Source: an uncultured Clostridia bacterium (GTDB lineage: Bacteria > Bacillota > Clostridia > Christensenellales > UBA1242). Taken from it: a stretch of DNA of 64,000 nt. Shown piece after piece: positions 1-61,000 of this stretch (positions are counted from its first letter, which is position 1; every line of letters starts with the position of its first letter). A model generated the notes under the pieces. It worked only from the letters and a program-made list of their open reading frames with translations. It made no database searches and was not told the origin of the DNA. The stretch spans positions 48-64,047 of the forward strand of contig CALVIT010000001.1 of assembly GCA_944331845.1 (NCBI GenBank), read 5' to 3'. Made by a program: the position numbers and the translations under genes.

Positions 1-1
1 C

Positions 2-1525
2 ATAACTTATACTTGTGCCGATACTGTTGAAGCAACTGTCCGCTGGACACCTATAGGTACATCTTCGAGTTCAACACAAAGATTTACTGGAACATTTGAT
101 GGTAATAATTATAGTATTACCTTTACTCAAACTATACATATCACAAGTGCTTCAGGGGATGTCTATGGCGGACTATTTGGATATACTAGTGGCGCTACAA
201 TTTCTAATCTAGGAGTCAACTGGGCAGGCACTGATAGTGTAGATATTGAGATAGAAGGGGAAACCAAATCATACACAGGATTAATAGTATCATCATTTTC
301 AAGTACTGTTTATGCTGGAGGAATCGCGGGGTATGCTGGGACCATCAGCAACTGCTACAACACGGGAGCAGTAACGGCGGAGTCTACTTCAAAGTATGCC
401 TTTGCCGGAGGGATCGCGGGGTATGCTGGGACCATCAGCAACTGCTACAACACGGGAGCAGTAACGGCGGAGTCTACTTCTTCTTATGTCTATGCCGGAG
501 GAATTTCGGGGGTGGCTGATTCAACAACCATCAGTAACTGCTACAATACGGGCGATGTGAATGCGGAGTCTACTTCAAAGTATGCCTGTGCCGGGGGAAT
601 CTCGGGGGAGATTTATGATACAACCATCAGTAACTGCTACAACACGGGAGCAATAACTTCTTATGTTTATGCCGGAGGAATCGCGGGGGGGGCTGATTCA
701 ATAACCATCAGCAACTGCTACAACACGGGTAGTGTGACTGCGACTGATTCAAATTTTACCGGTGCCGGGGGAATTTTGGGGTATGCTTATTATTCGACAA
801 CCATCCGAAACTGCTATAACACTGGAGCAATTACGTCTTTAGACAGTGTCGGAGGAATTTTGGGGTATGATGATTCTGATGCAACCATCAGCAACTGCTT
901 TAGTATAGGTACAGCACCTAGTGCAACAGGTAGTACAACGAAAGTAGGTGGTATAGTAGGAAGTGGCGGAACTGTAAATAACTGTTATCATAATTATGCT
1001 TCAATATATGAATATGAATCAAGTAATCAAATTACAGGTAAAGGTACATATGTAAGTAATCTTACAGATTATCTAGTATATTCAAGCGCTAATGCAAATT
1101 CAATCGTTAATAACTATACTCAAGGGTTTGGCGGTAATCAATGGTATACTGATGAGACCGAAGACTATTCTTGGGACTTTGATACAGTATGGGCGATAGA
1201 GAGCGGTATCAATGGTGGTTTACCATATTTAATAGCCATTCCGCCACAAGGAGAAGGGACACAAGGAAGTACTGTACAGTTAACCATTGAATATAGCGGG
1301 AGTGCTAAATTCTTAATAGTGGTAGAATATGGAGATAGTGCGTGTGCATTCACATATAGTGGAACATTTACATTTAATGTAGTAGGTGCAGAGTGTAAAG
1401 TAGCGATAATAGGATACAATGGTGAAAGCACATTGACATTGAATGATGCTTTACAAACAATAAGTAATAATACTTACACAATAAGTCTAGAGGATACTAA
1501 TAACATAGTACTAACATTAGGATAA
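2..1525 (+). CDS. GLUG-motif repeat surface protein, C-terminal part (5' end lies outside the window)
   Basis: The frame is open from the window edge to TAA at 1525. Upstream of the track start (512) the same frame reads WTPIGTSSSSTQRFTGTFDGNNYSITFTQTIHITSASGDVYGGLFGY, colinear with the module heads of the 58021 ORF. Repeated ISNCYNTGAV...YAGGI(A/S)G units match the GLUG motif type. Confidence 0.85.
   Translation: MTYTCADTVEATVRWTPIGTSSSSTQRFTGTFDGNNYSITFTQTIHITSASGDVYGGLFGYTSGATISNLGVNWAGTDSVDIEIEGETKSYTGLIVSSFSSTVYAGGIAGYAGTISNCYNTGAVTAESTSKYAFAGGIAGYAGTISNCYNTGAVTAESTSSYVYAGGISGVADSTTISNCYNTGDVNAESTSKYACAGGISGEIYDTTISNCYNTGAITSYVYAGGIAGGADSITISNCYNTGSVTATDSNFTGAGGILGYAYYSTTIRNCYNTGAITSLDSVGGILGYDDSDATISNCFSIGTAPSATGSTTKVGGIVGSGGTVNNCYHNYASIYEYESSNQITGKGTYVSNLTDYLVYSSANANSIVNNYTQGFGGNQWYTDETEDYSWDFDTVWAIESGINGGLPYLIAIPPQGEGTQGSTVQLTIEYSGSAKFLIVVEYGDSACAFTYSGTFTFNVVGAECKVAIIGYNGESTLTLNDALQTISNNTYTISLEDTNNIVLTLG
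323..480 (+). repeat. Exact 68-bp direct duplication (323-390 = 413-480, 90-bp period) inside the GLUG gene
   Basis: The string atcgcggggtatgctgggaccatcagcaactgctacaacacgggagcagtaacggcggagtctacttc occurs twice, 90 bp (30 codons) apart. Confidence 0.9.
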
Positions 1526-1536
1526 GGAGATAGAAT

Positions 1537-2355
1537 ATGCAAAAGAATACAATGAGTAGAAAGCAATTAAGCATAATAGGGTTAAGTATAATGTTAGTGC
1601 TAGTGTTAGTATTAGGAATAACGCTAGGAGCGTTGAAAGACTCTAAGACTGCTACGGGAACGATAGTATTTACAGGTAATCTAGCGGTGGTGTTAGACCA
1701 CGGTAGTACAAGTGGTACAGTGAATGGGACAAATTTGGAGTTAGACTTGATACCTGACTATACTACGCTAAAGGAAGCGAGCGAGAGTGGGAATATATAT
1801 TTACAAGACAAAGAAGGTAAAGTTGTATCACTTAAGTGGGAAGATAGCGCAACGAGTGGTAATGCCTTAAAATTTAGAGTAATATCAGACGGTGCGACAA
1901 ATGCGTACATAAAGATGACTTTGACATTACAATACACAAGTGCAGACAATGCCCCAGCGACGGCGCAAGAATGGCAAGTTTATCCAAAGTTTGGAAGTGA
2001 ATCATACGAGTTAAAACCTACAATGATAGGGGACGGAGTGAATGAAGAGTACTCATACTACAATGCTACAGATGGGTTAATGATAAGTTACCCATTGATA
2101 ACCAAAGAAGGTAACACAGTTAGCAAAGTATATGAGATGTACTATATAGATACAGTAAATAGCGGACTCAAATACTTTGAACCAACAGATACAACTGCAA
2201 ACATCGAAGGGTATACAAAGTTAAATAAAGAGATAGTAGTAGGTGACATAATAAGCGACATACAATTTTTGATAAGTGGTGTAAATTCAGTAAGCACAGG
2301 CGATGAATTCAAACTCAATATTAAGTGTGAAGCGACAACATTTGTATCATTATAG
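1537..2355 (+). CDS. Hypothetical secreted or membrane-anchored protein, probably co-transcribed with the upstream GLUG gene
   Basis: AAGGAG RBS 11 nt after the GLUG stop. N-terminal K/R region followed by the hydrophobic stretch LSIIGLSIMLVLVLVLGITLGAL. No recognisable catalytic motif. Confidence 0.6.
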   Translation: MQKNTMSRKQLSIIGLSIMLVLVLVLGITLGALKDSKTATGTIVFTGNLAVVLDHGSTSGTVNGTNLELDLIPDYTTLKEASESGNIYLQDKEGKVVSLKWEDSATSGNALKFRVISDGATNAYIKMTLTLQYTSADNAPATAQEWQVYPKFGSESYELKPTMIGDGVNEEYSYYNATDGLMISYPLITKEGNTVSKVYEMYYIDTVNSGLKYFEPTDTTANIEGYTKLNKEIVVGDIISDIQFLISGVNSVSTGDEFKLNIKCEATTFVSL

Positions 2356-2815
2356 GTATAGTGTTATACACTGTAGGTATAGTTTTATACATAAATGCGA
2401 TTTAGAATTATTTTATAACAAGACTTTAAATATTGTAAGTATAGATAATTATTAATGTTATTTACAATATGGTTACAAAATAATATAGTTATGGAAGTTG
2501 TAAAATAGATACACAATAATAATTTTTCACAAAAAAATTATGCAGTTTATTGTAAGTTAAAATTTTTATAACCCAAATTATATTGATAATATTTGTTTGT
2601 TGTTGTGAGATAAATGTACAAAATAGCGTATTCAAATAGATTTTGTCAACTTAAATGCAACGCTAAAAAAATATAATTGTTAATTAATAGTTATAATAAA
2701 AATTGTAGATATGGTTGTCTACAATTTTTATTATACAACATAATATAAAATGTTTTGTTGTATTTTTTGTTATAAGAATTATTATTTGTGATAACTATTC
2801 GAATAATAACATAAC

Positions 2816-2872
2816 AAAAAAGACCAAAAGTTGAGCAAGTCCCTATGGGGTATTTCAAAATTTGGTTTTTTT
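2816..2872. terminator. Bidirectional rho-independent terminator candidate
   Basis: A-run, then the stem ACCAAAAGTTGA...TCAAAATTTGGT (two internal mismatches), then a T7 run. It lies between convergent genes ending at 2355 (+) and 2971 (-). Confidence 0.5.
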
Positions 2873-2970
2873 AATAATTTATATAATAGATAGAATTTAT
2901 TAATAATTAGTAATATACGATAGTTAATAATTGATTAATAGTTAATAATTTATACAATAGTTAGTTTTGC

Positions 2971-3693
2971 TCATTCACTTCGTGCGATAAAAACAAGTAG
3001 AAGGAATCTTAATAATTCAAGCACTGCAACAACAAAGGATGCGACATAAGTTAGAGCGGCGGCTTTAAGCACTTTGGATGCTCCAGCAAGTTCTGTCTCT
3101 GTCATAAAATTGCCACCTTCAAGCATTTTTAAAGCACGGGAAGATGCGTCAAATTCTACAGGTAGTGTAATAAGATTTAGCAGTACTGCTAGTCCGTAGA
3201 ATGCTACTCCTGACCATAAGAAAATCGAACCTAATACTCCGCCTGTTGCACTGAATGCGCCTAACAATATACCTATGATAACAAGTGGCCACAGTAAGGT
3301 AGATGCGAAGTTAGTTATAGGAACTAAAATTTGTCTAAAACCTAAGAACGCATAATGTTCTTTTTTTTGTATAGCGTGACCTACTTCGTGCATAGCGATA
3401 CCTAGGGCTGCAACTGAAGTGCTGTCGTAGACACCTTCTGACAATGCGATATATTTCTTCTTAGGGTGGTAGTGGTCGGTCAAATGCCCGTTTTCTCTTC
3501 TAAGTTCAATATCTTGTAGGCCTGCATTGTCAAGGACTGCTCGTGCTAACTGCGAAGCGGTCATACCGTTCTCTGTATCTATTTGACTATAGGTATTGTA
3601 AGTCTTAGAAACTTTTGTTTGAGCGTAGATACCTAGCACAATACCCGGTATCAAAAGTACGCCTAATAGAATATATAAAAAATATAAAACCAA
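2971..3693 (-). CDS. Membrane zinc metallopeptidase, YugP / Zn_peptidase_2 family
   Basis: N-terminal TM segment, HEVGH (HExxH) motif in AALGIAMHEVGHAIQ, C-terminal TM helices, size about 240 aa. Confidence 0.8.
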   Translation of the reverse strand: MVLYFLYILLGVLLIPGIVLGIYAQTKVSKTYNTYSQIDTENGMTASQLARAVLDNAGLQDIELRRENGHLTDHYHPKKKYIALSEGVYDSTSVAALGIAMHEVGHAIQKKEHYAFLGFRQILVPITNFASTLLWPLVIIGILLGAFSATGGVLGSIFLWSGVAFYGLAVLLNLITLPVEFDASSRALKMLEGGNFMTETELAGASKVLKAAALTYVASFVVAVLELLRFLLLVFIARSE

Positions 3694-4060
3694 TTCAAAA
3701 CTCCTTGCATATAATATATGCTAAATACTAAATATAATACTAATATTTTACATAAAATGTTTGTTATTGTCAAGAATTAATAGTGATAAATAATATAAAG
3801 TAAATAATTAAGAGTAGGTAAGTGCAAATTTTGAATATTTCTAGCATAAATAATAGTATTACAACACACACTATATAGCGGGAATGATGGTTAATTATGA
3901 TTGATTGAAGGCATATCTTACTATCATTAATTGAAGGCACAAATAAATTTATTAATCGTACTATTACAAATGATAGAGACTATAATATTATCAATTATAT
4001 GAGCAGTACTTCTGAGCAGTACTTTGATAATATCATAGGCATCACATCATACTAATAATT

Positions 4061-4160
4061 TATAGAACTATGCTATGATAAAGTATAGAACTATGCTATG
4101 ATAAATTGTGTACATTATATTATGATAAATTGTATTGTTGTATTATGATAGATTATGGGC
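4061..4160. repeat. About 24-bp degenerate tandem repeat (4 units ending in TATGATAAAttg)
   Basis: tatagaactatgctatgataaag / tatagaactatgctatgataaattg / tgtacattatattatgataaattg / tattgttgtattatgatagattat. The first two units are nearly identical. Confidence 0.7.
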
Positions 4161-4381
4161 GAAATATGTTCCGTGCGAGTACAATAATTTATGATAATTC
4201 TGTTATTACAATTTTGATATATAATGACAACATTTTATAAAATATTAATATTTTAGGGCAATGTATTCAAAAAATGCGTCTTTGTTACTCAAATAATGCT
4301 ATATAGTGGTATTTTATGTGTATATTGCTTGACAAAAGACGATAATATTTGATAAAATTGCATCAAAGGAGTTAGAATATT

Positions 4382-5134
4382 ATGGATTCAACATTGTTAA
4401 TCATTCTAATAGTGGTAGGCATACTATTTGTGATATTTTGCATAGCAGGGTTCATAAAATGGCGTGCTAATTGGCTTACTACTTGGTTTAATGTCAAAAA
4501 ATTAGACATCAATAAACCTATATTAGAATATGTAGAACTTTTGCTCGCTGAGAGAAATTTAGCAGATGTTCAAGTTAAGAAAGTAGGATTTTGGGCATCA
4601 CTTTTTATTGGAAATACCTACAGCGTATCCAAAAAATTGATAAGGGTTAGTTGGTTCGCGTCCAAACATTCATCAGTTGTTACTTTGGCGCAGGCTTGCC
4701 GTTTAGTGGGACTTGCCCAAATGCACGCTGATGGCGTGAAAGGAATTAAAGCAGTTGAAGCGTATAGATGGCTTAACTGGTTACCTATATTGTTATTGCC
4801 GTTAATAGTCATAGGACTAATTGTTGACCTTGTGGCATTTGAAAGTGTTGGTTTATACACTATAATATTTAGTGCGGTAGGTGTGGTATTAACTTTGATA
4901 ACATTTATACTAGGACTTGTAGCGATGAAGAAGAACTTTATGGCGTACAGAATAGGTGAAGAAATTATCACAGGATTGGGCGTACTCAAAGACACTGAAG
5001 AGAAAAAAATGCGTCAATTATTCTCCGCTTGGAAGAGTCTAGAAGTAGTCAACGCATTCTTGAACGCATTTGAATTAGTGTACTTTGTATTAAAAATTGT
5101 TTTTTCGAGCATAAAATTATTTGGGAGAAAATAG
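4382..5134 (+). CDS. YugP-like membrane protein lacking the HExxH catalytic motif
   Basis: Same topology and local similarity to the 2971-3693 product (LADVQVKK vs LQDIELRR; SKKLIRVS...VVTLAQACRLVGLAQ vs KKKYIALS...VAALGIAMHEVGHAIQ), but HEVGH is replaced by CRLVG. AAAGGAG RBS. Confidence 0.6.
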   Translation: MDSTLLIILIVVGILFVIFCIAGFIKWRANWLTTWFNVKKLDINKPILEYVELLLAERNLADVQVKKVGFWASLFIGNTYSVSKKLIRVSWFASKHSSVVTLAQACRLVGLAQMHADGVKGIKAVEAYRWLNWLPILLLPLIVIGLIVDLVAFESVGLYTIIFSAVGVVLTLITFILGLVAMKKNFMAYRIGEEIITGLGVLKDTEEKKMRQLFSAWKSLEVVNAFLNAFELVYFVLKIVFSSIKLFGRK

Positions 5135-5959
5135 ATGGATAATCAAAAATTCTTAAGTCGTGGAACAAAGACTTTTAGTGTGGTTACAAGTGTTCTTTTG
5201 TCACTCGCTATTCTCATTTTGGTCATAATAGGACTCATAGGGGGCGATTTCTTAACAGTATCCCTAATTGGTTCGTGTGTTATAGTGTTCTTGACTGCTA
5301 TATTTATTGGGGCAATGCAAATAAAAGTATTTGGAGACTACAAGAGTCAAAAAAAATACCTTTGTGCTGATGGCATATTCTATATTTGTCTTACAATTTT
5401 AGTTGCTATCACTGCTATTATGTACACTATGTTCAAAGATGCGAATGTAGACATTAGATATTTTATATTTGTATTTACTTTGGCATTTGCAGTCTGGAAG
5501 ATTATAATTGCAGTATTAGCATTTAAGAATAAATATTTCAATGCTTTTGCTGAATTGCTTATCGCTATATTTTGGATAGTTAGCGGTGTAGGCGTATTAC
5601 TAACTATATTTGATAACCTAGAGAATGTAGGACAATATGTATTGTGCATATCTAACTATTTGTTGTGCTTATCTACAATATTCTATATATTGTATTCATA
5701 TTCTTTCAAAGACCCTAACTATCTCATAACTGACAAAGCGCTGGAAATACTTGAGAAGGAGCAAATAGAGCGTCAACAGAGATTAAATAGATTCAATGGC
5801 GGATTTGGTGGGCAAGTGGCACAACAAACACAACAGACAAATTCTGCTGATGATGTTGAATCAAAGTTGAAGAAACTTCAAAATCTTAAAGATAAGGGCT
5901 TTATAACTGAAGAAGAATTTGAAGCGAAGAGAAAAGAAATTCTTAATAGCGAATTTTAA
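5135..5959 (+). CDS. Polytopic membrane protein with a C-terminal SHOCT domain
   Basis: Multiple TM helices. The C-terminus KLKKLQNLKDKGFITEEEFEAKRKEILN matches the SHOCT (short C-terminal) domain pattern. The start abuts the stop of the upstream gene. Confidence 0.65.
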   Translation: MDNQKFLSRGTKTFSVVTSVLLSLAILILVIIGLIGGDFLTVSLIGSCVIVFLTAIFIGAMQIKVFGDYKSQKKYLCADGIFYICLTILVAITAIMYTMFKDANVDIRYFIFVFTLAFAVWKIIIAVLAFKNKYFNAFAELLIAIFWIVSGVGVLLTIFDNLENVGQYVLCISNYLLCLSTIFYILYSYSFKDPNYLITDKALEILEKEQIERQQRLNRFNGGFGGQVAQQTQQTNSADDVESKLKKLQNLKDKGFITEEEFEAKRKEILNSEF

Positions 5960-5976
5960 AGAAAACAAATTATAAT

Positions 5977-6009
5977 AAAAAACTTTTGGCTTTTGTCAAA
6001 AGTTTTTTT
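5977..6009 (+). terminator. Rho-independent terminator
   Basis: Stem AAAAAACTTTTG / CAAAAGTTTTTT with an 8-nt loop and a T-run, 18 nt after the stop at 5959. Confidence 0.75.
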
Positions 6010-6038
6010 GTGTCAATGTAAGAAGTAGGCGTATTTTA

Positions 6039-6520
6039 TGTAAGGGAACTACCCGTTCCCTTACGAACCCTTAGGCAAGGGGTAGAGAGTGTAGGGGATT
6101 TTCCATCCCCTACGACCCTAGTACAAGAGCAGGGCTCTTGACTTGTGTACTAAAAGTACATTAAATGTACTTGAGTACGCAAGACTCAAATTATATTGCT
6201 TTTTGCTAGATGCAAAAAGTAAATATTATTAAGTTTTAAGCACGAGACTTGTATTGTGTGCATAACCAAATAAACAGGTCAAGGACAATGTCCTTCAACT
6301 TCGGGTGTGGGGGATGGGAAATCCCCTACAAACAAAGACAGTGCAAGGGGACTACTCTTATCTAGTACTTTTAGTGTAAGGGAACTACCCGTTCCCTTAC
6401 GAACCTTTAGGCAAGGGGAGTCCCCCTTGACCTGTGTACTATGGGTGCACATACCAAACTTAGGTGCGAAGAACTTATAATATTTTGCTTTTTGCTAAAT
6501 GCAAAAAGTAAATAACATAT
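6039..6520. repeat. Cluster of GC-rich stem-loop repeats (two degenerate units about 290-336 bp apart)
   Basis: The 44-mer tgtaagggaactacccgttcccttacgaaccYttaggcaagggg occurs at 6039 and 6374 with 1 mismatch. gctttttgctaRatgcaaaaagtaaata occurs at 6198 and 6487. The hairpin GTAGGGGAT-loop-ATCCCCTAC sits at 6091, with an inverted-loop copy at about 6309. Further hairpins are CAAGAGC-AGG-GCTCTTG (6124), AAGGAC-AAT-GTCCTT (6281) and CAAGGGG-AGTC-CCCCTTG (6411). Confidence 0.8.
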
Positions 6521-6548
6521 AGTCATACGCACACAAGATGTGCTAAAA

Positions 6549-6705
6549 TGTGGACAAAATAGTTAATTATATAATTATAATAGTTAAGAGATTATTAATT
6601 AGTTAACCAAAAACTTTGGTAAGACTGCACAAATTTAGAACAAATTAAGTATAAATGGGTAAAGTTATCCACATTTTGTGCACATTTGTGGATAACTTAT
6701 CCACA
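6549..6705. promoter_or_regulatory. DnaA-box cluster (three perfect TTATCCACA 9-mers plus one near-consensus box)
   Basis: TTATCCACA at 6665-6673 (+), TGTGGATAA at 6687-6695 (-), TTATCCACA at 6697-6705 (+), and TGTGGACAA at 6549-6557 (1 mismatch). Confidence 0.7.
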
Positions 6706-6878
6706 AATTGAAAAATTTGTATCATTTTGTCAAATATTGTCGCATTTTGATACTGCTATTTTTTGACTTACTAACAAGCAAATACTACATAAATTTATTA
6801 AAATTGTAATACTGATTTCATACATTTGACTTTTTTTGTAAAATGTTCTATTCTTGTATTGTTGAATAGGAGTTAGAT

Positions 6879-8933
6879 ATGAAAGAAAATTTACAACCAC
6901 TTTTTACGCCTTGGAAGATAGGCAATGTCGAGATTAAGAATAGAATTGTGCTTTGTCCAATGGGTGGAACTTCACTATTTGGGTGGATGGAACCTAACCA
7001 TTTTGATGAAGAGTCTGCAGAATTCTTCTTGGAGAGAGCGAGAAATAATGTTGGACTCATTATACCGGGCATTGCACCGCTCAAAGACACTATTGGCGGT
7101 CGTTGGCTTTATCAAAACAAAGGTATGTTTAAGAAATTAAAAGAGTATATGACAGAGATTCACAAGACGGGGGCAAAACTTTTTGTTCAGTTAACCGCTG
7201 GATTTGGTAGGTCATTTGCTATAACTGAGAGTTTAGAATTTTTGTTAAAAAACAAAGTCATTGGAGCGTTAGCGAAACCTATAATTAATGCTTCTTATTT
7301 GTGCGCTAGTCCTAGTGAACTTCCTTCTAGGTGGGCTGAAGACATTAAGGTTAGGGCTTTAACAAAGAAGGAAATTCTAGATATGATTGACGCATTCGCT
7401 AAGACTTCTAAACTATGTAAAGAAGCAGGAGTCGATGGCGTTGAAGTGCACGCTGTACACGAAGGTTATTTACTCGACCAATTCACAACGCAATATACGA
7501 ACCATAGAACTGATGAATATGGCGGAAGTTTTGAGAATAGGTATCGTTTCGCAGTTGATGTCGTAAAGGCGATTAAGAGTGCGTGCGGTCAAGATTATCC
7601 TGTGTCTTTGAGATACTCGGTTGTTAGTAAGACAAAAGATTTCTGTAGTGGGGCGATGCCTAATGAAGAATACAAAGAAGTGGGTAGAGATTTAGCAGAG
7701 AGCGAGAAGGCTGCTAAATATTTACAAGATGCAGGCTATGATATGTTAGATGCTGACAATGGTACTTACGATGCTTGGTACTGGGCGCATCCACCGGCTT
7801 ATATGCCACAAAACTGTAACCTTGAAGAAGTAGCACATATCAAAAAATTTGTTGACATACCTGTTGTTTGTGCGGGTAGAATGGATGTCAATGTCGGTGC
7901 TGAAGCGGTTAAAGATGGTAGAATTGATGGCGTAGGTTTCGCTAGACAATTCTTGGTCGATGGAGAGTGGGTAACTAAACTTATTGAAGGTAGAGAAGAA
8001 GATATCCAACCTTGTATATGTTGTCATAATGCTTGTTTTACTATGGCACACTACAAGGGGGTAGCAAATGACCAAGATTTTGATGATATTAAACATATGT
8101 CAAGATGCGCTTTGAACCCACAAACTATGCAACGCAAGAAGTTTGCTTTAACTAAAGCAAAGCGCCCTAAAACTATCGCAGTCATTGGCGGTGGAATTGG
8201 TGGAATGGAAGTCGCTAGAATTGCAACATTGCGTGGGCACAAGGTAACAATTTATGAGAAGACTAACTCCTTAGGTGGCGTGTTCGTACCAGCGGCAGCG
8301 TTTGATTTCAAAGAGAAGGACAGGGAGTTAATCGAATTTTATAAGCGACAAATTAGCAAGTTAAATATTGAAGTCGTTTATAATACTGAGATAATTGACT
8401 TAAAATCAATCAAAGCAGATGAGATAGTAATCGCTACAGGGTCAAAGCCTAGACAATTAAGACTACAAGGCATTGAAAATTCAATAGAAGCAGTTGAATA
8501 CTTAAGCGGACAAAAGCAAGTAGGTCAAAATGTTGTCATAATAGGTGGCGGATTGACTGGGTGCGAGATAGCGTACGACTTACATAGACACGGCAAGAAC
8601 CCTATCATTGTAGAAATGAAAAATGATTTAATGGCAGTCAAGGGAATTTGTCTAGCGAACTCTTCATATTTGAGAGATTATTTTAAACTACATAATGTAC
8701 TTATTTATTTAGAAAGTTCTGTAAAAGAAATTAAAGACAATTCAGTTGTCATCGTTGATAAATCTAATAATGAGCAAGAAGTCGCTAAGGATGATGTCAT
8801 TGTGTCAGTTGGATATAACCCTGCACCAATCGCTAAAGAAGGTAAGCATATCCATATCGTAGGCGATGCGTATAAGGTCGGCAATCTAAGGACTGTCATT
8901 TGGCGTGCGTGGGAAGTCGCTCGAAAACTTTAA
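6879..8933 (+). CDS. NADH:flavin oxidoreductase of the 2,4-dienoyl-CoA reductase / 2-enoate reductase family (OYE-like FMN domain + 4Fe-4S + FAD/NAD(P) domain)
   Basis: N-terminal OYE-type TIM-barrel motifs (IKNRIVLCPMGG, HAVHEGYLLDQF). Cys cluster CICCHNAC...RCALNP. C-terminal Rossmann motifs (IAVIGGGIGG and VVIIGGGLTG). Confidence 0.85.
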   Translation: MKENLQPLFTPWKIGNVEIKNRIVLCPMGGTSLFGWMEPNHFDEESAEFFLERARNNVGLIIPGIAPLKDTIGGRWLYQNKGMFKKLKEYMTEIHKTGAKLFVQLTAGFGRSFAITESLEFLLKNKVIGALAKPIINASYLCASPSELPSRWAEDIKVRALTKKEILDMIDAFAKTSKLCKEAGVDGVEVHAVHEGYLLDQFTTQYTNHRTDEYGGSFENRYRFAVDVVKAIKSACGQDYPVSLRYSVVSKTKDFCSGAMPNEEYKEVGRDLAESEKAAKYLQDAGYDMLDADNGTYDAWYWAHPPAYMPQNCNLEEVAHIKKFVDIPVVCAGRMDVNVGAEAVKDGRIDGVGFARQFLVDGEWVTKLIEGREEDIQPCICCHNACFTMAHYKGVANDQDFDDIKHMSRCALNPQTMQRKKFALTKAKRPKTIAVIGGGIGGMEVARIATLRGHKVTIYEKTNSLGGVFVPAAAFDFKEKDRELIEFYKRQISKLNIEVVYNTEIIDLKSIKADEIVIATGSKPRQLRLQGIENSIEAVEYLSGQKQVGQNVVIIGGGLTGCEIAYDLHRHGKNPIIVEMKNDLMAVKGICLANSSYLRDYFKLHNVLIYLESSVKEIKDNSVVIVDKSNNEQEVAKDDVIVSVGYNPAPIAKEGKHIHIVGDAYKVGNLRTVIWRAWEVARKL

Positions 8934-8947
8934 TACATTAATTATAA

Positions 8948-8974
8948 CTACAAAGACATTCTTTGTAGTTTTTT
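8948..8974 (+). terminator. Rho-independent terminator
   Basis: CTACAAAG-acatt-CTTTGTAG followed by T6, 15 nt after the stop. Confidence 0.8.
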
Positions 8975-9066
8975 GTAATATCTATAAAATTAACATATAA
9001 AGTGTGCATAAGTGCTTTTTTTGACAAAAAATTTGCACACTTTTTTGTTTTAAAATAGTAAAATAC

Positions 9067-9095
9067 TTTACAATTATTTATTTGTATAGTATAAT
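9067..9095 (+). promoter_or_regulatory. Sigma-A type promoter for the ABC exporter operon
   Basis: TTTACA, 17-nt spacer, TATAAT (9090-9095). Leaves a leader of about 100 nt before the ATG at 9203. Confidence 0.6.
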
Positions 9096-9202
9096 GTAAA
9101 AACATAAGAAATTTCATTCATATATTAATATATGGTGCCGATTTATAATTCGGTTTTCTTCTTTTCTAATAAGAAATAGTTTATATAAAAAAAGGAGTAG
9201 GG

Positions 9203-11026
9203 ATGTTAAGATTTTTGAAATATTTTAGGGGACTAGAATGGTTATTCATAGTCTTATTGATTGCCTTAAATGTAGGGCAAGCAATTTTAGATTTGACTTT
9301 ACCTGAATATATGGGCAATCTTGTTGACTTAGTTTTAGCGAAAGCGGGTACAAGTGAAGTAGTCATTGAAGGGTTAATTATGTTAAGTATAGCATTAGGT
9401 TCTATTGTTCTACTTATAGTGAGCGATTTTATCGCTTCAGTATTGGCTGCTAGGTACACTCGTAGGATGCGTGCGCTTGTGTATGATAAGGTTCAGTCAA
9501 TGTCTCAGGCGACTATGAATAATTTCACTACCGCTAGTTTAATAACTCGTTCTACTAATGATATAACACAAGTAGGTAACGCGTTGTCAATGGGCTTTAA
9601 AGTCGCTATATATGCACCTATTATAGCAATTTTTGCGTTTTTGAAGATTATTGACAAATCTTCTTCTTTGTCGCTTGCGACAGGTGTATCAATTATTGCG
9701 CTTGTGCTATTAATTGTTGTGGTATTTGGCTTTGCAGTGCCAAAATTTAAGAAAATTCAAAAACTCACTGATAAGGTAAATGGTATCAATCGAGAAAACC
9801 TTATGGGGTTGAGAGTTGTTAGGGCATACAATGCTGAGAACTATCAAAAAGATAAGTTTGAAGAGACTAACCAAAATTTAAGAAGAGAGAATACTATTGT
9901 CGGTAGGTTAATGTCTGGACTTAATCCTATTATGAACTTAATAATGAACGGTTTGAGTCTAGCGATTGTATGGATAGGTGCATACCTAATTAATGATGGT
10001 GCGCTAGACATACCTACGATGACTGAATTCACTATGTATGCAATGCAAGTTGTTATGGGCTTCTTGTTATTGAGTATCATATTTATTTTAGTACCAAGGG
10101 CGACTGTCTCATTAAAGAGAATCTATGAAGTACTTGATGCTAAAGAGAGTATTTTTGATGGAAAGGGTATCGAATTAAGCAAGATAAATGCACAAAATGA
10201 TAGTGATAGTAGCATAAATGCTGTAAATGCTATTGATTCTAATAAGAATGTAGAAGCAGTAAGTGAGAAGATACCTATAGTTGAATTTAGAAATGTTTGT
10301 TTCAAATATCCTGATGCGGAAGAGAGCGTTTTGAATAACATTAGTTTTAGTTGTTATACTGGGCAAACAATAGCATTTATAGGTTCAACAGGTAGTGGTA
10401 AGAGTACACTTATTAACTTAATACCTAGATTCTATGATGCGACAAGCGGGCAAGTTCTTATCAATGGTATAGATGTTAAAGATTATAAATTAAGCGAATT
10501 GCACGCTATGCTTGGTTATGTACCACAGAAGGGAATATTATTCAAAGGCACTGTTAGAGAGAATGTAGATTTTGGCGACAACAAAATAAGTGATGAGCAA
10601 ATAGAATGGGCATTAAAGGTCGCTCAATCTTATGACTTTGTCAGCAAGATGGGCGGACTAGATGCGGAGATTTCTCAAAATGGGTCAAACCTATCAGGTG
10701 GACAAAAACAGCGTTTGAGCATCGCTCGTGCTTTGGCGAACAAACCGCCTATATGTATATTTGATGATTCTTTCTCAGCACTAGACTATAAGACTGACAA
10801 AAAGTTGAGGGCTTCACTCAAAAAAGAAATGAAAGACAGTACAAAATTCATTGTCGCACAGAGAATAGGAACAATCAAAGATGCTGACTTAATCGTAGTG
10901 CTTGACAGTGGCGAAATTGTTGGAATGGGTAGACACGAAGACTTGATTAAGAATTGTCAGGTATATATCGAGATAGCAAATTCACAATTAAGTAAGGAGG
11001 AGATAAATGGAACAATCAAGAAATAG
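9203..11026 (+). CDS. ABC exporter, fused permease/ATPase subunit (heterodimeric multidrug-type, YheI/BmrC-like)
   Basis: Six-TM exporter domain, Walker A GSTGSGKST, signature LSGGQKQR, Walker B ICIFDDSFSALD. GGAG RBS. Confidence 0.85.
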   Translation: MLRFLKYFRGLEWLFIVLLIALNVGQAILDLTLPEYMGNLVDLVLAKAGTSEVVIEGLIMLSIALGSIVLLIVSDFIASVLAARYTRRMRALVYDKVQSMSQATMNNFTTASLITRSTNDITQVGNALSMGFKVAIYAPIIAIFAFLKIIDKSSSLSLATGVSIIALVLLIVVVFGFAVPKFKKIQKLTDKVNGINRENLMGLRVVRAYNAENYQKDKFEETNQNLRRENTIVGRLMSGLNPIMNLIMNGLSLAIVWIGAYLINDGALDIPTMTEFTMYAMQVVMGFLLLSIIFILVPRATVSLKRIYEVLDAKESIFDGKGIELSKINAQNDSDSSINAVNAIDSNKNVEAVSEKIPIVEFRNVCFKYPDAEESVLNNISFSCYTGQTIAFIGSTGSGKSTLINLIPRFYDATSGQVLINGIDVKDYKLSELHAMLGYVPQKGILFKGTVRENVDFGDNKISDEQIEWALKVAQSYDFVSKMGGLDAEISQNGSNLSGGQKQRLSIARALANKPPICIFDDSFSALDYKTDKKLRASLKKEMKDSTKFIVAQRIGTIKDADLIVVLDSGEIVGMGRHEDLIKNCQVYIEIANSQLSKEEINGTIKK

Positions 11027-12785
11027 ACATTCACATAGCCGTAATAAATATTCATTTAACGAGTCAATATACAAATTTATCTTGTACCTTAGACCTTACT
11101 ATGTGTGGTTAGTGCTAGCAGTGATATTCGCAGTAGGCGGTACGATTTGTAGTATCATAGGGCCTAATAAAATAGGTGAGATAACAAATATTATTGAAGC
11201 GGGAGTGCTGGGCGGAACGGGAATTGACCTAGCAGAAATTGTTAAGATAGGTATCCTACTTATAATTTTGTATGGTGTCAGTGCGCTTTTGTCTTTCTTA
11301 CAAGGATACATTATGACCGATGTCGTTCAAAGGTCTACAAAGAGAATGAGAACTGACATATACGCTAAGATAAATAGGTTGCCTTTATCGTATTATGATA
11401 GTCATACCTTTGGCGACACACTAAGTAGAGTTACTAACGATGTAGATACTATAGGTTTGTCGTTCAATCAGGCAACTGTAATGCTAATATCTGGTGTAAC
11501 ACTTGTATTGGGTGCACTTGTTATGATGTTCATAACCGCTTGGCAATTAGCACTTGTTGCGTTAATTTGTATTCCTATAGGTTCTGGACTAATGTCATTA
11601 ATTTTGAAGTTCTCACAGAAGTATTTTACGAGTCAGCAACAACAAATAGGCGATATAAATGGTATTGTCGAAGAATCTTATTCTGGACATAATGTTGTAA
11701 CTGCATTCAACGCTAAACAAAAAATGCAAGACAAATTTCAAAACACTAATAACAAATTATTTAAGTCTCAATACAAGTCGCAGTTTGTTTCTGGTATAAT
11801 GATGCCTATAATGCAGTTCGTGGGTAACCTTGGATATGTTGTAGTATGTATTGTCGGCGGTGTGCTTTATCTTAATGGACATATACAGATTGGGGCTATA
11901 ATTAGTTTTATTATATACATTAAATTGTTCACACAACCTTTGGCGACTATTGCTCAATCAGTGTCCAGTATGCAGTCTGTAGCGGCGGCAAGCGGAAGAG
12001 TATTTGAGTTCTTAGAAGAGAAAGAGATGCCACAAGAGACACCTAGACTATACTTAGATAATGTAAAGGGCGATGTCAAATTCGAGAATGTTGAGTTCGG
12101 CTATAGCGATGACAAGATGATTATCAAAGGGTTCAATGCGCACGCTTTGCCGGGTCAAAAAATAGCGCTTGTTGCTCCAACAGGGGCAGGAAAGACTACA
12201 CTTGTTAACCTTCTAATGAAATTCTATGATATAAATAGCGGAGATATCAAGATTGATGATGTATCTATTAAAGATTTGTCAAGAGAGAATGTTCATAAAC
12301 TTTTTGGAATGGTTCTTCAAGATACTTGGCAATTCGAAGGTAGCATATATGACAACATAGCATTTAATACACCTAATGCGACTAATGATGATGTTGTCAA
12401 TGCTTGTAAAAAAGTGGGGCTTGACCATTATATAAGAACATTACCACACGGGTATGACACTGTGCTTGATGACACTGTGTCATTGAGTGCCGGTCAAAAA
12501 CAACTATTGACTATCGCTAGAGCTATGGTTCACAATGCTCCATTGCTAATACTCGATGAAGCGACAAGTAGCGTTGATACTAGAACGGAGATAATTATCG
12601 CTAACGCTATGGATGAATTGTCGAAGGGGAAAACAAGTTTTGTTATAGCACATAGATTGTCAACAATCAAAAATGCTGACCAAATTTGGGTTATGGAAGA
12701 CGGCAAGGTTGCAGAAAGCGGTACTCACGATGAGTTATTAAAACTAAATGGTAGATACGCAGAATTGTATAATTCTCAGTTCTAA
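11007..12785 (+). CDS. ABC exporter, fused permease/ATPase subunit (YheH/BmrD-like partner)
   Basis: Overlaps the upstream gene by 20 nt and has an AAGGAGG RBS. Walker A APTGAGKTT, signature LSAGQKQL, Walker B LLILDEATSSVD. Confidence 0.85.
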   Translation: MEQSRNRHSHSRNKYSFNESIYKFILYLRPYYVWLVLAVIFAVGGTICSIIGPNKIGEITNIIEAGVLGGTGIDLAEIVKIGILLIILYGVSALLSFLQGYIMTDVVQRSTKRMRTDIYAKINRLPLSYYDSHTFGDTLSRVTNDVDTIGLSFNQATVMLISGVTLVLGALVMMFITAWQLALVALICIPIGSGLMSLILKFSQKYFTSQQQQIGDINGIVEESYSGHNVVTAFNAKQKMQDKFQNTNNKLFKSQYKSQFVSGIMMPIMQFVGNLGYVVVCIVGGVLYLNGHIQIGAIISFIIYIKLFTQPLATIAQSVSSMQSVAAASGRVFEFLEEKEMPQETPRLYLDNVKGDVKFENVEFGYSDDKMIIKGFNAHALPGQKIALVAPTGAGKTTLVNLLMKFYDINSGDIKIDDVSIKDLSRENVHKLFGMVLQDTWQFEGSIYDNIAFNTPNATNDDVVNACKKVGLDHYIRTLPHGYDTVLDDTVSLSAGQKQLLTIARAMVHNAPLLILDEATSSVDTRTEIIIANAMDELSKGKTSFVIAHRLSTIKNADQIWVMEDGKVAESGTHDELLKLNGRYAELYNSQF

Positions 12786-12828
12786 TTTTGTGATAAATAT
12801 ACTATAAGCGGAATAACGAATTAGTTAA

Positions 12829-12860
12829 AGCGGAATAACAGATAAGTTATCCGCTTTTTT
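12829..12860 (+). terminator. Rho-independent terminator
   Basis: AGCGGAATAAC...GTTATCCGCT stem (one bulge) followed by T6. Confidence 0.7.
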
Positions 12861-12876
12861 GTATCTAATTTAATGT

Positions 12877-13000
12877 AAAAAAACTTATGTAAGTATAAAA
12901 CATATATGTAGGTATAAAAACTTGTGTAGGTATAACAATTATTAGTAGATATAAAATATATAAGAAGCATAACAAAACATATATGTAAGTATAACAATTG
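12877..13000. repeat. About 20-bp periodic degenerate tandem repeat (consensus TRTGTARGTATAAMA), at least 6 units
   Basis: cttatgtaagtataaaa / catatatgtaggtataaaaa / cttgtgtaggtataacaatt / attagtagatataaaatata / taagaagcataacaaaa / catatatgtaagtataacaatt. Looser copies occur at about 13053 and 13098. Confidence 0.65.
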
Positions 13001-13270
13001 TATACAAGGCTAAATTATAATATATATGCTGTTATTTTTATATAAGTTTATTACTATTTGCGTGTAGGGGTATATACAAATTGTATGAGCCTTTATATGT
13101 GCGTAAGTAAATATAGGGAGTCATTGTACGAGAATACAAAAAAACATTTACTAGCATTATAATTAATTCAAAATAAAATTTTCTACAAAGAAACATTTTA
13201 TGATGGGAAGTTAAAGATAATTTTTTGAGATAAAAATACATATTTTATTTATTTTGACATACAATAAATT

Positions 13271-13741
13271 ATGTTAAATTTTATTAAAGAAAATTTGAGA
13301 CTTATTATTACTTGGGTAGTTATTATAGTTGTTGCAGTGCTTGGAAGTATTTTTGTGAACTTAGGTATGGATTGGTTTGACTCATTAACAAAACCTAGTG
13401 AGTGGGTACCTAATTTTGTTATACCTATTATTTGGACTGTAATATATTTATTATTTGCTATTGTATTTATATTCTTATACAAAAAAGAAGTTGTGAATAC
13501 TAAAATAATTGTTTTGGGTATTTTGAATGCGGTATTTAATGTATTATGGTGTTTGGTTTTCTTCACACTCAATCAACTATTGTTAGGCGAGATTGTTATC
13601 ATTATTAATGTAGTTTTGGGTGCTTTATTAGTTGCTGAACTAACAAAAACTCAATTATGGTATACATTTTTGTTGTGGGTATATCCTATTTGGTTGAGCA
13701 TTGCTACTTTATTAAATACTGCTGTTTGGATTCTAAATTAA
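13271..13741 (+). CDS. tspO: TspO/MBR family tryptophan-rich sensory protein
   Basis: Five-TM protein of 156 aa with family motifs: LTKPSEWVPNFVIPIIWTVIY, NVLWCLVFF, VYPIWLSIATLLNTAVWILN. Confidence 0.8.
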   Translation: MLNFIKENLRLIITWVVIIVVAVLGSIFVNLGMDWFDSLTKPSEWVPNFVIPIIWTVIYLLFAIVFIFLYKKEVVNTKIIVLGILNAVFNVLWCLVFFTLNQLLLGEIVIIINVVLGALLVAELTKTQLWYTFLLWVYPIWLSIATLLNTAVWILN

Positions 13742-14313
13742 TATCATTTAATTTATTTCACTACATAATTTTATCATAATGAATAAAGAGTAGGGAGAGT
13801 GGGTACTTTCTCTATTTTTTATATAAAATAGGTTGTAAATAAAATAACATATAATTGAAAGTGTATTCAATTATTATAAATACCTTATAATAAATATCAT
13901 AACACAAATCATATGATAAATTCTATATTATATATATATCATAATATAAATAATATAGTATAAAAATCATATTATTATAATTGTCATATAATATATACCG
14001 CATATTATATTAAATAATGTAATATTTAGTATTATAATAAGTATTGTTATTAATAAGTGTTATCATAAACACCATATAGTAAATACTATATAATTTATAA
14101 ATAAAATATAATTATAAATAACATAAAGATTATAAAAACACATATTAGATTTAAAGTAAAAAATAAAAACTTTCGTCATTATACACAAAATTTTTGGGAT
14201 ATTGTGTTGTTTTTTGTATAATTTAGGGCAAAATATATCATAAACTTAATAAATTTAGTTAGAAAAATTGTTAATTTATGGTATAATGAAATTTATACAA
14301 AGGAAGAAAGTTG

Positions 14314-45506: not shown

Positions 45507-45667
45507 ACAAAAAATTATCGCCAAAGACAGCAAGTGGTTTATCCGCAAATTGCTTATGCAAACTTGCCGAGGAGATGTATAAGGTAATATGTCGTATGCA
45601 GGGTACGAAAACTATCTCTATGCTATCTCAATGTGGCATAGAGTTTTTTGTAACTATAGAAAGGAGG
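45507..45667 (+). promoter_or_regulatory. Ribosomal protein L10 leader with an intrinsic terminator/attenuator
   Basis: 5' UTR of about 165 nt between the promoter and the rplJ RBS. The hairpin CTCTATGC...GCATAGAG (45616-45643) is followed by T6 (45644-45649). Its position and layout match the Firmicutes L10-leader class. Confidence 0.65.
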
Positions 45668-51633: not shown

Positions 51634-51931
51634 TATGTGGATAACTGCATATATTTGTAGGGTTTATGTTATGAATTTGTATTATAATTGATAGTATTTA
51701 GTAGTATAGATGTAGATATAGAATAACAATTTTATTTTAAGTATAGTATAATCATATTTATTTTAAGAATGTATAATTATAATTTATTTAATAAATGTAA
51801 TCATTATATTATTATACATTTTTAGTAAAATTGAATTTTAGTTTTAGTAAATTTTAATTGTATCAAAAATTACAAAATAAATTTAGTTTATCTTTAAATG
51901 AAGGTAATAGTACAATTTAGGTAGGGCAATT

Positions 51932-58020: not shown

Positions 58021-61000
58021 ATGCGAGCAAACAATGGAGGTAATGAAATGCGCAAACAAGATACATACAACGAAATAATGGATAGAAGAGTAGAAGAGAC
58101 TAGTATAGACAACAATAGTGGTCTTTTTGTGGATACAACAAATGTAGGAAAATATACTAAAAAAGAAGAAAAGGTCTTGTCTAGAGTACAAGCATTACAC
58201 AAGCGAGCAGGACACATACGCTCAAGGGTAGGGCAAAGTGCTAGTATAGGTGTACAACACACAAATACCTTTATGCGCTCTACAGTACAATTAGTATTGT
58301 GGTTATTAGCATTTGTCATGAGTCTAACAATGGTATGTTGTCTTAGTACAAATAAAGGCACTTTGAATGAAGTGAACGCAGTTAGTGGGACTGCTATCTC
58401 TACAGTGGATGAATTGAAAGCGGTGGCAAATAACTTAAGTGGTAGTTATTACCTAGCGAATGACATAACAGTAACTGACAGCACTTGGACCCCTATAGGC
58501 ACATCTTCAAGTAGTACATTTAAAGGCACATTTGATGGTAATGGCTATAGTATCACCTTTACTCAAACTATACATATCACAAGTTCTTCAGGGTCTGCTT
58601 ATGGCGGATTATTTGGTTATCTTACTAGTGCCACAATTAAGAATTTGGGTGTCATATGGTCAGAAGATAGCATAGATATTAATATAAATGGCGAAACAGA
58701 ACCATACACAGGCTTAGTAGTATCTTCTAAATCCAGTGTCCATGCCGGGGGGATCGTGGGGTATGCTTCTGTTTCAATCATAAGTAACTGCTACAATATG
58801 GGTGCAGTGAGTGCAGAATCGGCATCTTCTACTGCCTATGCAGGCGGAATTGTGGGAAATAATAATAATTCTTCAATCATCAGCAACTGCTACAACACGG
58901 GTGCAGTAAAGGCGACTGCTTCTGCTTCTTCAAAGACTGCTTATGCAGGCGGAATCGTAGGGGATTCAGATAATCCCATCAGCAACTGCTACAACACAGG
59001 TGCAGTGAGTGCAGAATCGGCATCTTCTACTGCCTATGCAGGCGGAATCGTGGGGGATGCGGGTAATCCCATCAGCAACTGCTACAACACAGGTGCAGTA
59101 AAGGCGACTACTTCTGCTTCTTCAAAGACTGCTTATGCAGGTGGCATTGCGGGGAATGGTGGTTATGGTACAACCATCAGCAACTGTTTTAGTATAGATC
59201 CTAACCTTAGTGATAGCATTAATACATCACCTAGTGCAGAAGTGAATAAAGCAGTCAATCTTACAAATGTAGGTGGTATAGTAGGAAGTGGCGGTACGGT
59301 AAATTATGGTTATCATAATTATGTAAGTTTAGATAATATCAATAAAGGTACCTATGTAGAGACCCTTGCTAGTTTCCTTGTATATTCAAATAATAATGCT
59401 AGTATAATAATTGATAATTATAAGTTTGGTTTTACAGTTAATACTATTAATTATGGATGGGACTCTGCTTGTACTTGGAATTTTGACATTATATGGAAAG
59501 TAAATACTGATGCTAGTACAAGTAATACTCAACCTTTAATTATAAATATGAGAATTCCACAATTTAGTGGAGAGGGGACCGCAGATTCACCATACATAAT
59601 TTCCAATTCTGACGATTTAAAGTCGTTGTCAAGTGCAGTTAGTGTGGGGCTCTTGAATGATTCCTATTATAGAGTAGAGTCACAAAATCTAAATAAAGTG
59701 ATAGAAATAACTGACAATACCTGGACCCCTATAGGTACATCGTCAAGTAGTGCATTTACTGGAACATTTGATGGTAATGGGCACAGTATCACTTTTACGC
59801 AGACTATATATATAACAAGCAGTTCAGGTGATGTCTATGGCGGACTATTTGGATATGCTAGTGATGCGACAATATCTAATTTAGAAGTTAACTGGGCAGG
59901 TACTAACACGATTAGTAATTATACAGGTCTGATAGTATCTTCTACAACTTCTACTGCCTATGCTGGGGGAATAGCGGGGTATGGTGAGAAAATTAGTAAT
60001 TGTTATAGCACGGGAGCAGTGACTGCGACTTCTACTCATACTTCTTCTAATGCCTATGCAGGAGGAATCGCGGGGTATTGTGGAACCATCAATAGTTGCT
60101 ACAATGAGGGAGCAGTGACTGCGATTTCCACAACTTATGATGCCTATGCAGGTGGAATTGCAGGAAAAGTGGTAGACCTTATATGTAATTGCTACAACAC
60201 GGGCACAGTGACTGTGACTGACTCAAGGTATGCCTATGCCGGAGGAATTTCTGGCAAGGCTTCGTCTTCAACAACAATCATTAACTGCTACAACACTGGC
60301 GCAGTGGATGCAACTTCTACATCTTCTTTTGTCTATGCAGGCGGAATCGTGGGATATGCAGAAGAGGCAACCAGTAGCAACTGCTACAACACTGGCGCAG
60401 TGGATGCAACTTCTACATCTTCTTCTGTCTATGCAGGCGGAATCGTGGGGTATGCAAAAGAAGCAACCAGTAGCAACTGTTTTAGTATAGATCCTAACCC
60501 TGATGATGATATTGATACAACACCTAGTGGTAAAACTGTAGGTGCTATAGTAGGAAGTGGCGGTACAGTAAATTATTGTTATCATAATTATTCATCAATT
60601 AATACAACAACTACTGGAACTGCAACGATTTATAATTCAAATTTGGCAGGTTTAGTAAAACAAAAAGATGAGTTTCTTGCATTAACTTGGGACCCTATTT
60701 ATCTTTGGAACTTCAACATTGTATGGGAAGTAAATACTGATGATAGTACAAGTACTACTCAACCATTGATAATTAATATAAGGGTTCCATTTACAGGAGC
60801 AGGTACTGAAGAATCTCCATATATAATATCCGATTCTGATGATTTAAAGTCATTGTCATATGGAATCAACTTGGGACTCTGGAATGATTCGCATTTTAGA
60901 GTTGAGTCACAAAATCAAAATAAAGTGATAGAAATAACTGACAATACCTGGACCCCTATAGGTACATCGTCAAGTAGTGCATTTGAAGGCACTTTTGATG

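Follow-up and report, generated by a model that had tools for sequence, protein, structure and literature searches.

A compact DnaA-box cluster of the extra-origin type predicted upstream of an oxidoreductase gene in an uncultured Clostridia lineage

Experimental work on clusters of DnaA boxes located outside the origin of replication has covered only a small number of model bacteria (B. subtilis, E. coli and Streptomyces), and our literature search found no paper on extra-origin clusters in Clostridia. In B. subtilis, the removal of all six such clusters resulted in over-initiation or early initiation of replication (Okumura et al., PMC3245932), and several of the six regulate the neighbouring gene (PMC3245932, PMC2533591). 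The genes next to extra-origin clusters differ from one Bacillus species to another, and the clusters nearly always lie near oriC (PMC3245932, PMC2533591). A score, A, has been defined as the summed affinity of four successive boxes (TTATNCACA, with at most one mismatch) divided by their mean distance, and a threshold of A greater than 0.3 was found to pick out precisely the eight B. subtilis regions to which DnaA binds stably, whose values range from 0.36 to 1.64 (Ishikawa et al., PMC2533591). In E. coli, the datA locus contains five high-affinity DnaA boxes outside oriC and restrains initiation (PMC3245932).

For comparison with a second E. coli element, we read the DARS1 core from the MG1655 genome as TTATCCACT-N5-TGTGGATAA-N3-TGTGTATTA, with boxes II and III head-to-tail. 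The boxes of datA are spread over approximately 1 kb and need an essential IHF site. DnaA-regulated promoters include the autoregulated dnaA promoter and those of sda, ywlC and yydA in B. subtilis, as well as that of nrdAB in E. coli.

The box array and described DnaA elements

The DNA analysed here (the window, a stretch of 64,000 nucleotides from an uncultured Clostridia bacterium) is essentially the whole of a 64,083-bp MAG contig. An earlier note on this DNA had reported three exact DnaA-box 9-mers within 41 bp, and all three were found, with the coordinates and strands given for boxes 1, 2 and 3 in Table 1, where the corresponding sites of two related species (loci L002 and L003) are also listed. 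The window contained five exact boxes, whereas dinucleotide-preserving shuffles gave an expectation of 1.04, and no shuffle out of 100 had as many as five. At the background rate of the shuffles, a 64-kb window should contain 1.4e-7 triplets within 41 bp, which bears out the earlier statement that such a group is beyond chance. One-mismatch boxes were at chance level, with 31 found and 25 expected.

A fourth member of the cluster had been proposed at 6549 (TGTGGACAA). This 9-mer exists, but it belongs to a class that occurs at chance level and it is unconserved in either relative, and we did not retain it as part of the cluster. A better placed fourth site had been overlooked: box 1b (TTGTGCACA) sits inside the 13-nt spacer between boxes 1 and 2. 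With this site included, the four box starts (6665, 6676, 6687 and 6697) are 11, 11 and 10 bp apart, the gaps between boxes are 2, 2 and 1 bp, and the orientations are + + - +. This phasing amounts to about one site per helical turn, so that all four face the same side of the helix.

A perfect 12+1+12 palindrome, ATTTGTGGATAA-C-TTATCCACAAAT, contains boxes 2 and 3, as had been described for the last two boxes, 1 nt apart. The label "head-to-head" that had been attached to this pair is ambiguous, because boxes 2 and 3 are divergent; the head-to-head pair of E. coli DARS1 (TTATCCACT-N5-TGTGGATAA) matches the relative orientation of boxes 1 and 2, and is opposite to that of boxes 2 and 3. Boxes 1 and 2, for their part, make up an inverted repeat of 12 nt whose arms are 13 nt apart.

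Table 1. Coordinates of the features in the window, with the corresponding sites in two related species.
Feature	Position	Strand	Description	In L002 and L003
Conserved non-coding block	6560..6664	.	105 bp; includes AACCAAAAASTTTG and TTTAGAACAAA	
DnaA box 1	6665..6673	+	TTATCCACA, perfect	Identical in L002 (5733) and L003 (9540)
DnaA box 1b	6676..6684	+	TTGTGCACA, 1 mismatch to TTATNCACA; head-to-tail with box 1, 2-bp gap	L003 (9551) identical; L002 (5744) degraded to TTTTCAACA, 2 mismatches
DnaA box 2	6687..6695	-	TGTGGATAA on the + strand, perfect	L003 (9562) identical; L002 TTTTCCACA on the box strand
DnaA box 3	6697..6705	+	TTATCCACA, perfect; divergent from box 2, 1-bp gap	L003 (9572) identical; L002 (5764) ATATCCACA, 1-nt spacer deleted
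Four-site core	6665..6705	.	41 bp	
One-mismatch box	6549..6557	-	TTGTCCACA; probably outside the element	Unconserved in both
Promoter-like site	6826..6854	+	TTGACT-17-TATTCT, immediately upstream of the oxidoreductase ribosome-binding site	
Oxidoreductase gene	6879..8933	+	684 aa, OYE/FMN and pyridine-nucleotide-disulphide-oxidoreductase; Pfam PF00724, PF07992	

The cluster had an A score of 4.875 in both the window and L003 and of 0.81 in L002; elsewhere in the window, no site scored above 0.26. Among 200 windows simulated from a Markov model, the highest A was 0.10 on average, 3% reached 0.3, and none exceeded 1.25. The cluster exceeds the sequence criterion for stable binding about 16-fold, the criterion being one that was derived from B. 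subtilis. Like the B. subtilis clusters, it is intergenic, it consists of at least four TTATNCACA-type boxes outside oriC with A greater than 0.3, its neighbouring gene is unrelated to replication, its placement is lineage-specific, and its contig carries genes that lie near the origin in B. subtilis. Unlike the B. subtilis clusters, it is more compact and closer to the consensus (three perfect boxes in 41 bp and an A of 4.9 compared to a maximum of 1.64), and its host belongs to an uncultured low-GC lineage of Clostridia. It is predicted from the sequence and overturns nothing already known.

Our preferred interpretation, which we hold with moderate confidence, is that these boxes make up an extra-origin cluster like those of B. 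subtilis, acting as a DnaA sink and/or as a regulatory site. We infer that DnaA binds to the cluster. The four 9-bp sites, three of them perfect and placed one per turn, would hold a short, stable DnaA group on one face of the DNA, and the cluster would most likely serve as a high-affinity chromosomal sink and regulatory site for DnaA that helps to restrain initiation at oriC.

The cluster has in common with the cores of E. coli DARS1 and DARS2 three strong boxes in mixed orientation that include a convergent (head-to-head) pair, which here consists of boxes 1 and 2 (or 1b and 2) and in DARS1 of boxes I and II. A DARS- or datA-like element, in which convergent boxes would force a head-to-head contact between DnaA molecules and thereby ADP release or ATP hydrolysis, could be proposed on these grounds. 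However, the order in DARS1 is I-N5-II-N3-III with II and III head-to-tail, whereas the gaps in the cluster are 2, 2 and 1 bp and its last pair is divergent, and the cluster does not have the DARS core geometry. The resemblance to datA is that of a group of DnaA boxes outside oriC, although the cluster spans only 41 bp. Furthermore, to our knowledge the Firmicutes are without Hda and IHF, and we know of no RIDA/DARS or datA cycle in them, a view echoed in PMC3245932. We consider a DARS- or datA-like function very unlikely.

Several other box-like sequences were observed in the window. At 6549, the sequence TGTGGACAAAATAGTT resembles what we take to be a Tn7-end motif; a reading as a Tn7 end was dropped, as transposition genes are absent nearby and the sequence is unconserved. 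A single perfect DnaA box is located at 51636-51644 (-), at the stop codon of the yabB-like methyltransferase gene and upstream of rsmI; it is kept in L003 (21419-21427) as ATGTGGATAA, and the sequence immediately downstream diverges. The L10 leader (RF00557, 45503-45659) contains TTATCCGCA at 45539-45547 of the window and a perfect TTATCCACA at 12279-12287 of L003, which we take as a coincidental match within a structured RNA leader and not as a DnaA site.

Genomic setting and the question of an origin

The earlier note had preferred an extra-origin cluster or a DnaA-regulated promoter over oriC, and had named a GC-skew switch at about 6.7 kb as the finding that would mean oriC. This switch was looked for, and there was none: all 2-kb bins across the window, and all 1-kb bins over positions 1 to 14000, had a positive GC skew, and therefore the + strand is the leading strand throughout, with no origin-type switch at 6.7 kb. 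The genes run mostly in the + direction, as had been noted for those beside the cluster and as we found to hold for the whole 64 kb. Similarly, the statement that dnaA and dnaN are absent from the vicinity could be extended to all 64 kb, in which Pfam scans of ORFs of at least 110 aa not nested in a larger gene detected neither; a rep gene was likewise not found in the 64 kb, nor a parS site in the window. Run-on TAG/TAA triplets of the DnaA-trio kind did not adjoin the boxes, and a distinctive AT-rich unwinding element was not seen there. The flank downstream of the boxes had been called very AT-rich. It was found that 6706-6878 is 77% AT, and the other intergenic regions of the window are 67 to 88% AT, most of them above 80%, which makes this flank ordinary; it is also unconserved in L003. 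The distance from the cluster to the oxidoreductase gene, previously given as about 170 bp, is 174 bp to the ATG.

The genes on the contig include mnmG, tilS, a class-I aminoacyl-tRNA synthetase gene, rplJ-rplL with the L10 leader, and holB-yaaT (PSP1)-yabB-like methyltransferase-rsmI, and oriC is absent from the 64-kb contig. In B. subtilis, mnmG, tilS, rplJ-rplL and holB-yaaT-yabB-rsmI lie origin-proximal. Genes for GLUG-motif repeat proteins are found at both ends of the window (2-1525 and 58021-63699), which suggests that the window represents a whole MAG contig broken in repeated GLUG genes.

A dense array of DnaA boxes beside AT-rich DNA could be the origin of the chromosome, half of a bipartite origin, or what is left of a plasmid or phage origin; phage genomes also hold dense arrays with the same flanks, and the close boxes with a period of approximately 11 bp are like the low-affinity arrays in the oriC core of E. 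coli. Unlike an oriC core, however, the cluster is accompanied by no skew switch, dnaA, dnaN, DnaA-trio repeats or distinctive AT-rich element. oriC was ruled out by the skew, the gene content, the missing DnaA-trios and the ordinary AT content. A plasmid or phage origin relic was likewise rejected, as no plasmid similarity was found, the phage matches cover the boxes only, and the exact three-box arrangement had no copy in viral contigs. The explanation as an origin is already largely refuted, and we regard it as scarcely credible in any of its forms. The preference expressed in the earlier note is in agreement with these results, and with the A score and the conservation of the cluster.

The phage arrays are described here as an observation in their own right. 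In pig-gut Gokushovirinae/Microviridae, non-coding arrays (MG945568.1, 606-677; MT135265.1, 572-643) contain four perfect TTATCCACA boxes and one or two one-mismatch boxes, with the perfect ones in the same orientation at a period of 10-11 bp, and the flank AAGTTATCCACATTTT of box 1 in the window also flanks boxes in these arrays. Lactococcus phages of the AM1 group have three perfect boxes in 43 bp (1506-1548 in Lactococcus phage AM1, KY554768.1). The flank AAGTTATCCACA is common to the dense perfect-box arrays of the pig-gut Gokushovirinae and the Lactococcus AM1-group phages. Among the papers listed in a literature search, none joined "DnaA box" with Microviridae or Gokushovirinae.

Conservation in related species

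Homologues were collected by a scan at one genome per species, which gave 80 loci with relatives of the oxidoreductase that are 68 to 83% identical. Of these 80 loci, only the two closest (L002 and L003) had exact DnaA boxes in the 800 bp before the oxidoreductase gene, and none of the 78 more distant orthologues had an exact box within that distance. The carriers of the cluster are thus three species, that of the window and those of L002 and L003, and oxidoreductase homologues at least 82% identical were found in these three species only. Loci of relatives anchored on tilS (79 to 89% identical) contained neither the cluster nor the oxidoreductase gene in the fetched flanks, and therefore the element appears to be confined to a narrow lineage.

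The 41-bp core is identical at 41 of 41 positions between the window and L003 (L170 is identical to L003), and L002 is identical at 35 of 41 positions to the window or to L003. The block adjoining the core on its upstream side (6560-6664) is 65 to 71% identical in an ungapped alignment of the three species, with TTTAGAACAAA and AACYAAAAASTTTG as invariant stretches. In contrast, the four-fold degenerate sites of the oxidoreductase gene are 27 to 36% identical between species (about 32%), which means that they are saturated. Because the core and the adjoining 105-bp block are conserved while the four-fold sites are saturated, both are under purifying selection, and for the cluster this selection is strong in all three species.

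The L002 boxes have changes at box positions 1 and 3 (TTTTCCACA and ATATCCACA), for which the pairing partner is uncompensated. TTTTCCACA still fits the DnaA consensus form TTWTNCACA. The L002 variants appear to lie at positions that DnaA tolerates, and they fit or nearly fit the consensus. Changes that are both tolerated and uncompensated argue for independent protein sites and against a hairpin.

This bears on the possibility that the locus is the operator of another dimeric transcription factor, or a DNA or RNA hairpin, and that the match to the DnaA box is coincidental. The perfect 12+1+12 palindrome and the 12-nt inverted repeat would be expected of such elements, and single-strand folding gave z-scores of -2.4 to -4.1. 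However, the two repeat pairs differ (one convergent with N13, the other divergent with N1), such that a single dimer cannot recognise both, and three copies match the universal DnaA 9-mer exactly. As for a hairpin, the changes in L002 break the pairing without compensation, and the covariation term of RNAalifold was unfavourable. A hairpin or RNA element was rejected on these uncompensated changes and on the absence of a terminator or terminator-like T-run and of an Rfam family, the Rfam hits being far below threshold and located in neighbouring repeats; there is also no adjacent regulator gene. An operator of another factor or a hairpin is, in our estimation, highly improbable.

The block at 6560-6664 contains no ORF by eye and gave no Rfam match. 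There is a possible AT-rich stem at approximately 6562-6611, in which two pairs are changed on both sides among the three sequences; covariation gives no support for a structure.

A pattern scan of metagenomes with TTTAGAACAAA-N18-22-TTATCCACA returned 88 loci, none of them homologous and most of them marine coding sequence. Five of the metagenome contigs (L120, L139, L148, L153 and L160) share an unrelated non-coding group of boxes, TTTTCCACA ... TTATCCACA ... TGTGAAAAC ... TTTTCCACA, which is probably the origin region of another organism, found via a chance match to TTTAGAACAAA.

The oxidoreductase gene and candidate roles of the cluster

The oxidoreductase is of the 2,4-dienoyl-CoA reductase / 2-enoate reductase type. 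Among solved structures, its closest matches are NCR (6qkg) and 2,4-dienoyl-CoA reductase (1ps9), and it does not reach the NCBIfam cut-offs set for BaiCD and bilirubin reductase. Its gene adjoins the cluster in all three carrier species, in two different left-hand contexts. In the window, two Zn-peptidase genes and a SHOCT gene are followed by the module of cluster and oxidoreductase gene and then by ABC transporter genes; L002 has the left side of the window, with tilS after the oxidoreductase gene; and in L003, a DUF378 gene of the opposite strand lies on one side of the module and rplJ on the other. As the surrounding genes differ among the three species, the cluster and the oxidoreductase gene have kept together in at least one relocation, and the module has the same tilS/rplJ neighbourhood in each of its three positions.

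The oxidoreductase gene is preceded in the window, L002 and L003 by a -35/17/-10 arrangement of the form TTGACW-17-TATYCT. The end of box 3 is 120 bp from the -35 in the window, 72 bp in L002 and 372 bp in L003, and the boxes never overlap the promoter-like site. At the boxes themselves, no convincing and conserved promoter was found; TGCACA-18-TATAAA and TTGAAA (after box 3) were rejected as promoters, as both are weak and unconserved matches. With the oxidoreductase promoter 70 to 120 bp downstream of the cluster in two of the three species, DnaA on the boxes may modulate this promoter as well. The position of the boxes would allow upstream activation or modulation in these two species, and it is not the placement of a classical operator. 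Moreover, the cluster does not appear to be an intrinsic operator of the oxidoreductase family, because it does not overlap the promoter-like site, its distance is variable and the 78 other orthologues are free of exact boxes over the 800 bp upstream.

An alternative to the preferred interpretation is that the cluster mainly serves the oxidoreductase promoter as an upstream element dependent on DnaA, which when bound between about -80 and -165 would raise or dampen transcription and so couple expression of the flavoenzyme to replication status, in the manner of sda, ywlC and yydA in B. subtilis. The same gene is directly downstream in all three carriers, including the relocated pair in L003, the conserved -35/-10 is 72 to 120 bp downstream in two species, and the further conserved 105 bp upstream would be expected of a composite regulatory region; regulation of a neighbouring gene by several of the six B. 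subtilis clusters is a precedent for such a role. In having boxes upstream of a sigma-70-type promoter-like site, at the same gene in three species, the locus is like known DnaA-regulated promoters. It is unlike them in that the boxes are 72 to 372 bp from the -35 with no overlap, and that orthologues elsewhere are without boxes (0 of 78 with an exact box within 800 bp upstream). In addition, the co-movement of cluster and gene in a single relocation is weak evidence, with an estimated 35-50% chance of occurring without a functional link, four near-perfect sites exceed the usual need of gene regulation, and there is no obvious reason for DnaA control of an enoate-reductase-type enzyme. We consider a role mainly in promoter control unlikely, although it is an alternative that deserves serious weight.

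The interpretation as a sink, for its part, has to accommodate several observations. One 41-bp cluster would be a small sink, and in B. subtilis over-initiation required the removal of six; retention with the oxidoreductase gene through relocation fits gene regulation at least equally well; the element is limited to a narrow lineage; and the conserved 105-bp block beside the boxes goes unexplained. The sink and the promoter-control roles would not be mutually exclusive, and the sequence by itself cannot separate them. A bolder proposal is that the module of approximately 150 bp formed by the 105-bp block and the four sites might be a dedicated cis-acting controller of DnaA in Clostridia, an independently evolved counterpart of datA and DARS tied to a redox flavoenzyme, that couples initiation and redox metabolism; we regard this as improbable.

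What sets the extra-origin cluster apart is its compactness, its near-perfect consensus, the phasing of one site per turn with mixed orientation, and the persistent linkage to a flavoenzyme gene, together with full conservation of the core between the window and L003 despite saturated neutral sites. It would offer a minimal and clean 41-bp test piece for what a small DnaA array does outside the origin, be it titration, control of transcription or chromosome organisation. If regulation of the flavoenzyme were true, replication status would be linked to redox metabolism in gut anaerobes.

Two further observations concern the neighbourhood of the module. The tilS/mnmG/rplJ gene order is heavily rearranged among close relatives (tilS 79 to 89% identical; window 1-45000 compared to L002, L003 and L176-L182), and approximately 22 kb, from the ABC transporters to mnmG and HAD, separates the oxidoreductase gene from tilS in the window and not in L002. 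Between the SHOCT terminator and the conserved block, the window contains two copies (6020-6532) of a hairpin-rich repeat of approximately 290 to 340 bp with stems of the GTAAGGGAACTACCCGTTCCCTTAC, GTAGGGGATTTTCCATCCCCTAC and GCAAGGGG...CCCCTTG type, for which there was no Rfam match. The repeat is missing at this position in L002 and L003, and the L002 copy (7950-8500) lies between the oxidoreductase gene and tilS, at the rearrangement junction; the repeat has the appearance of a dispersed, MITE/REP-like element specific to the lineage.
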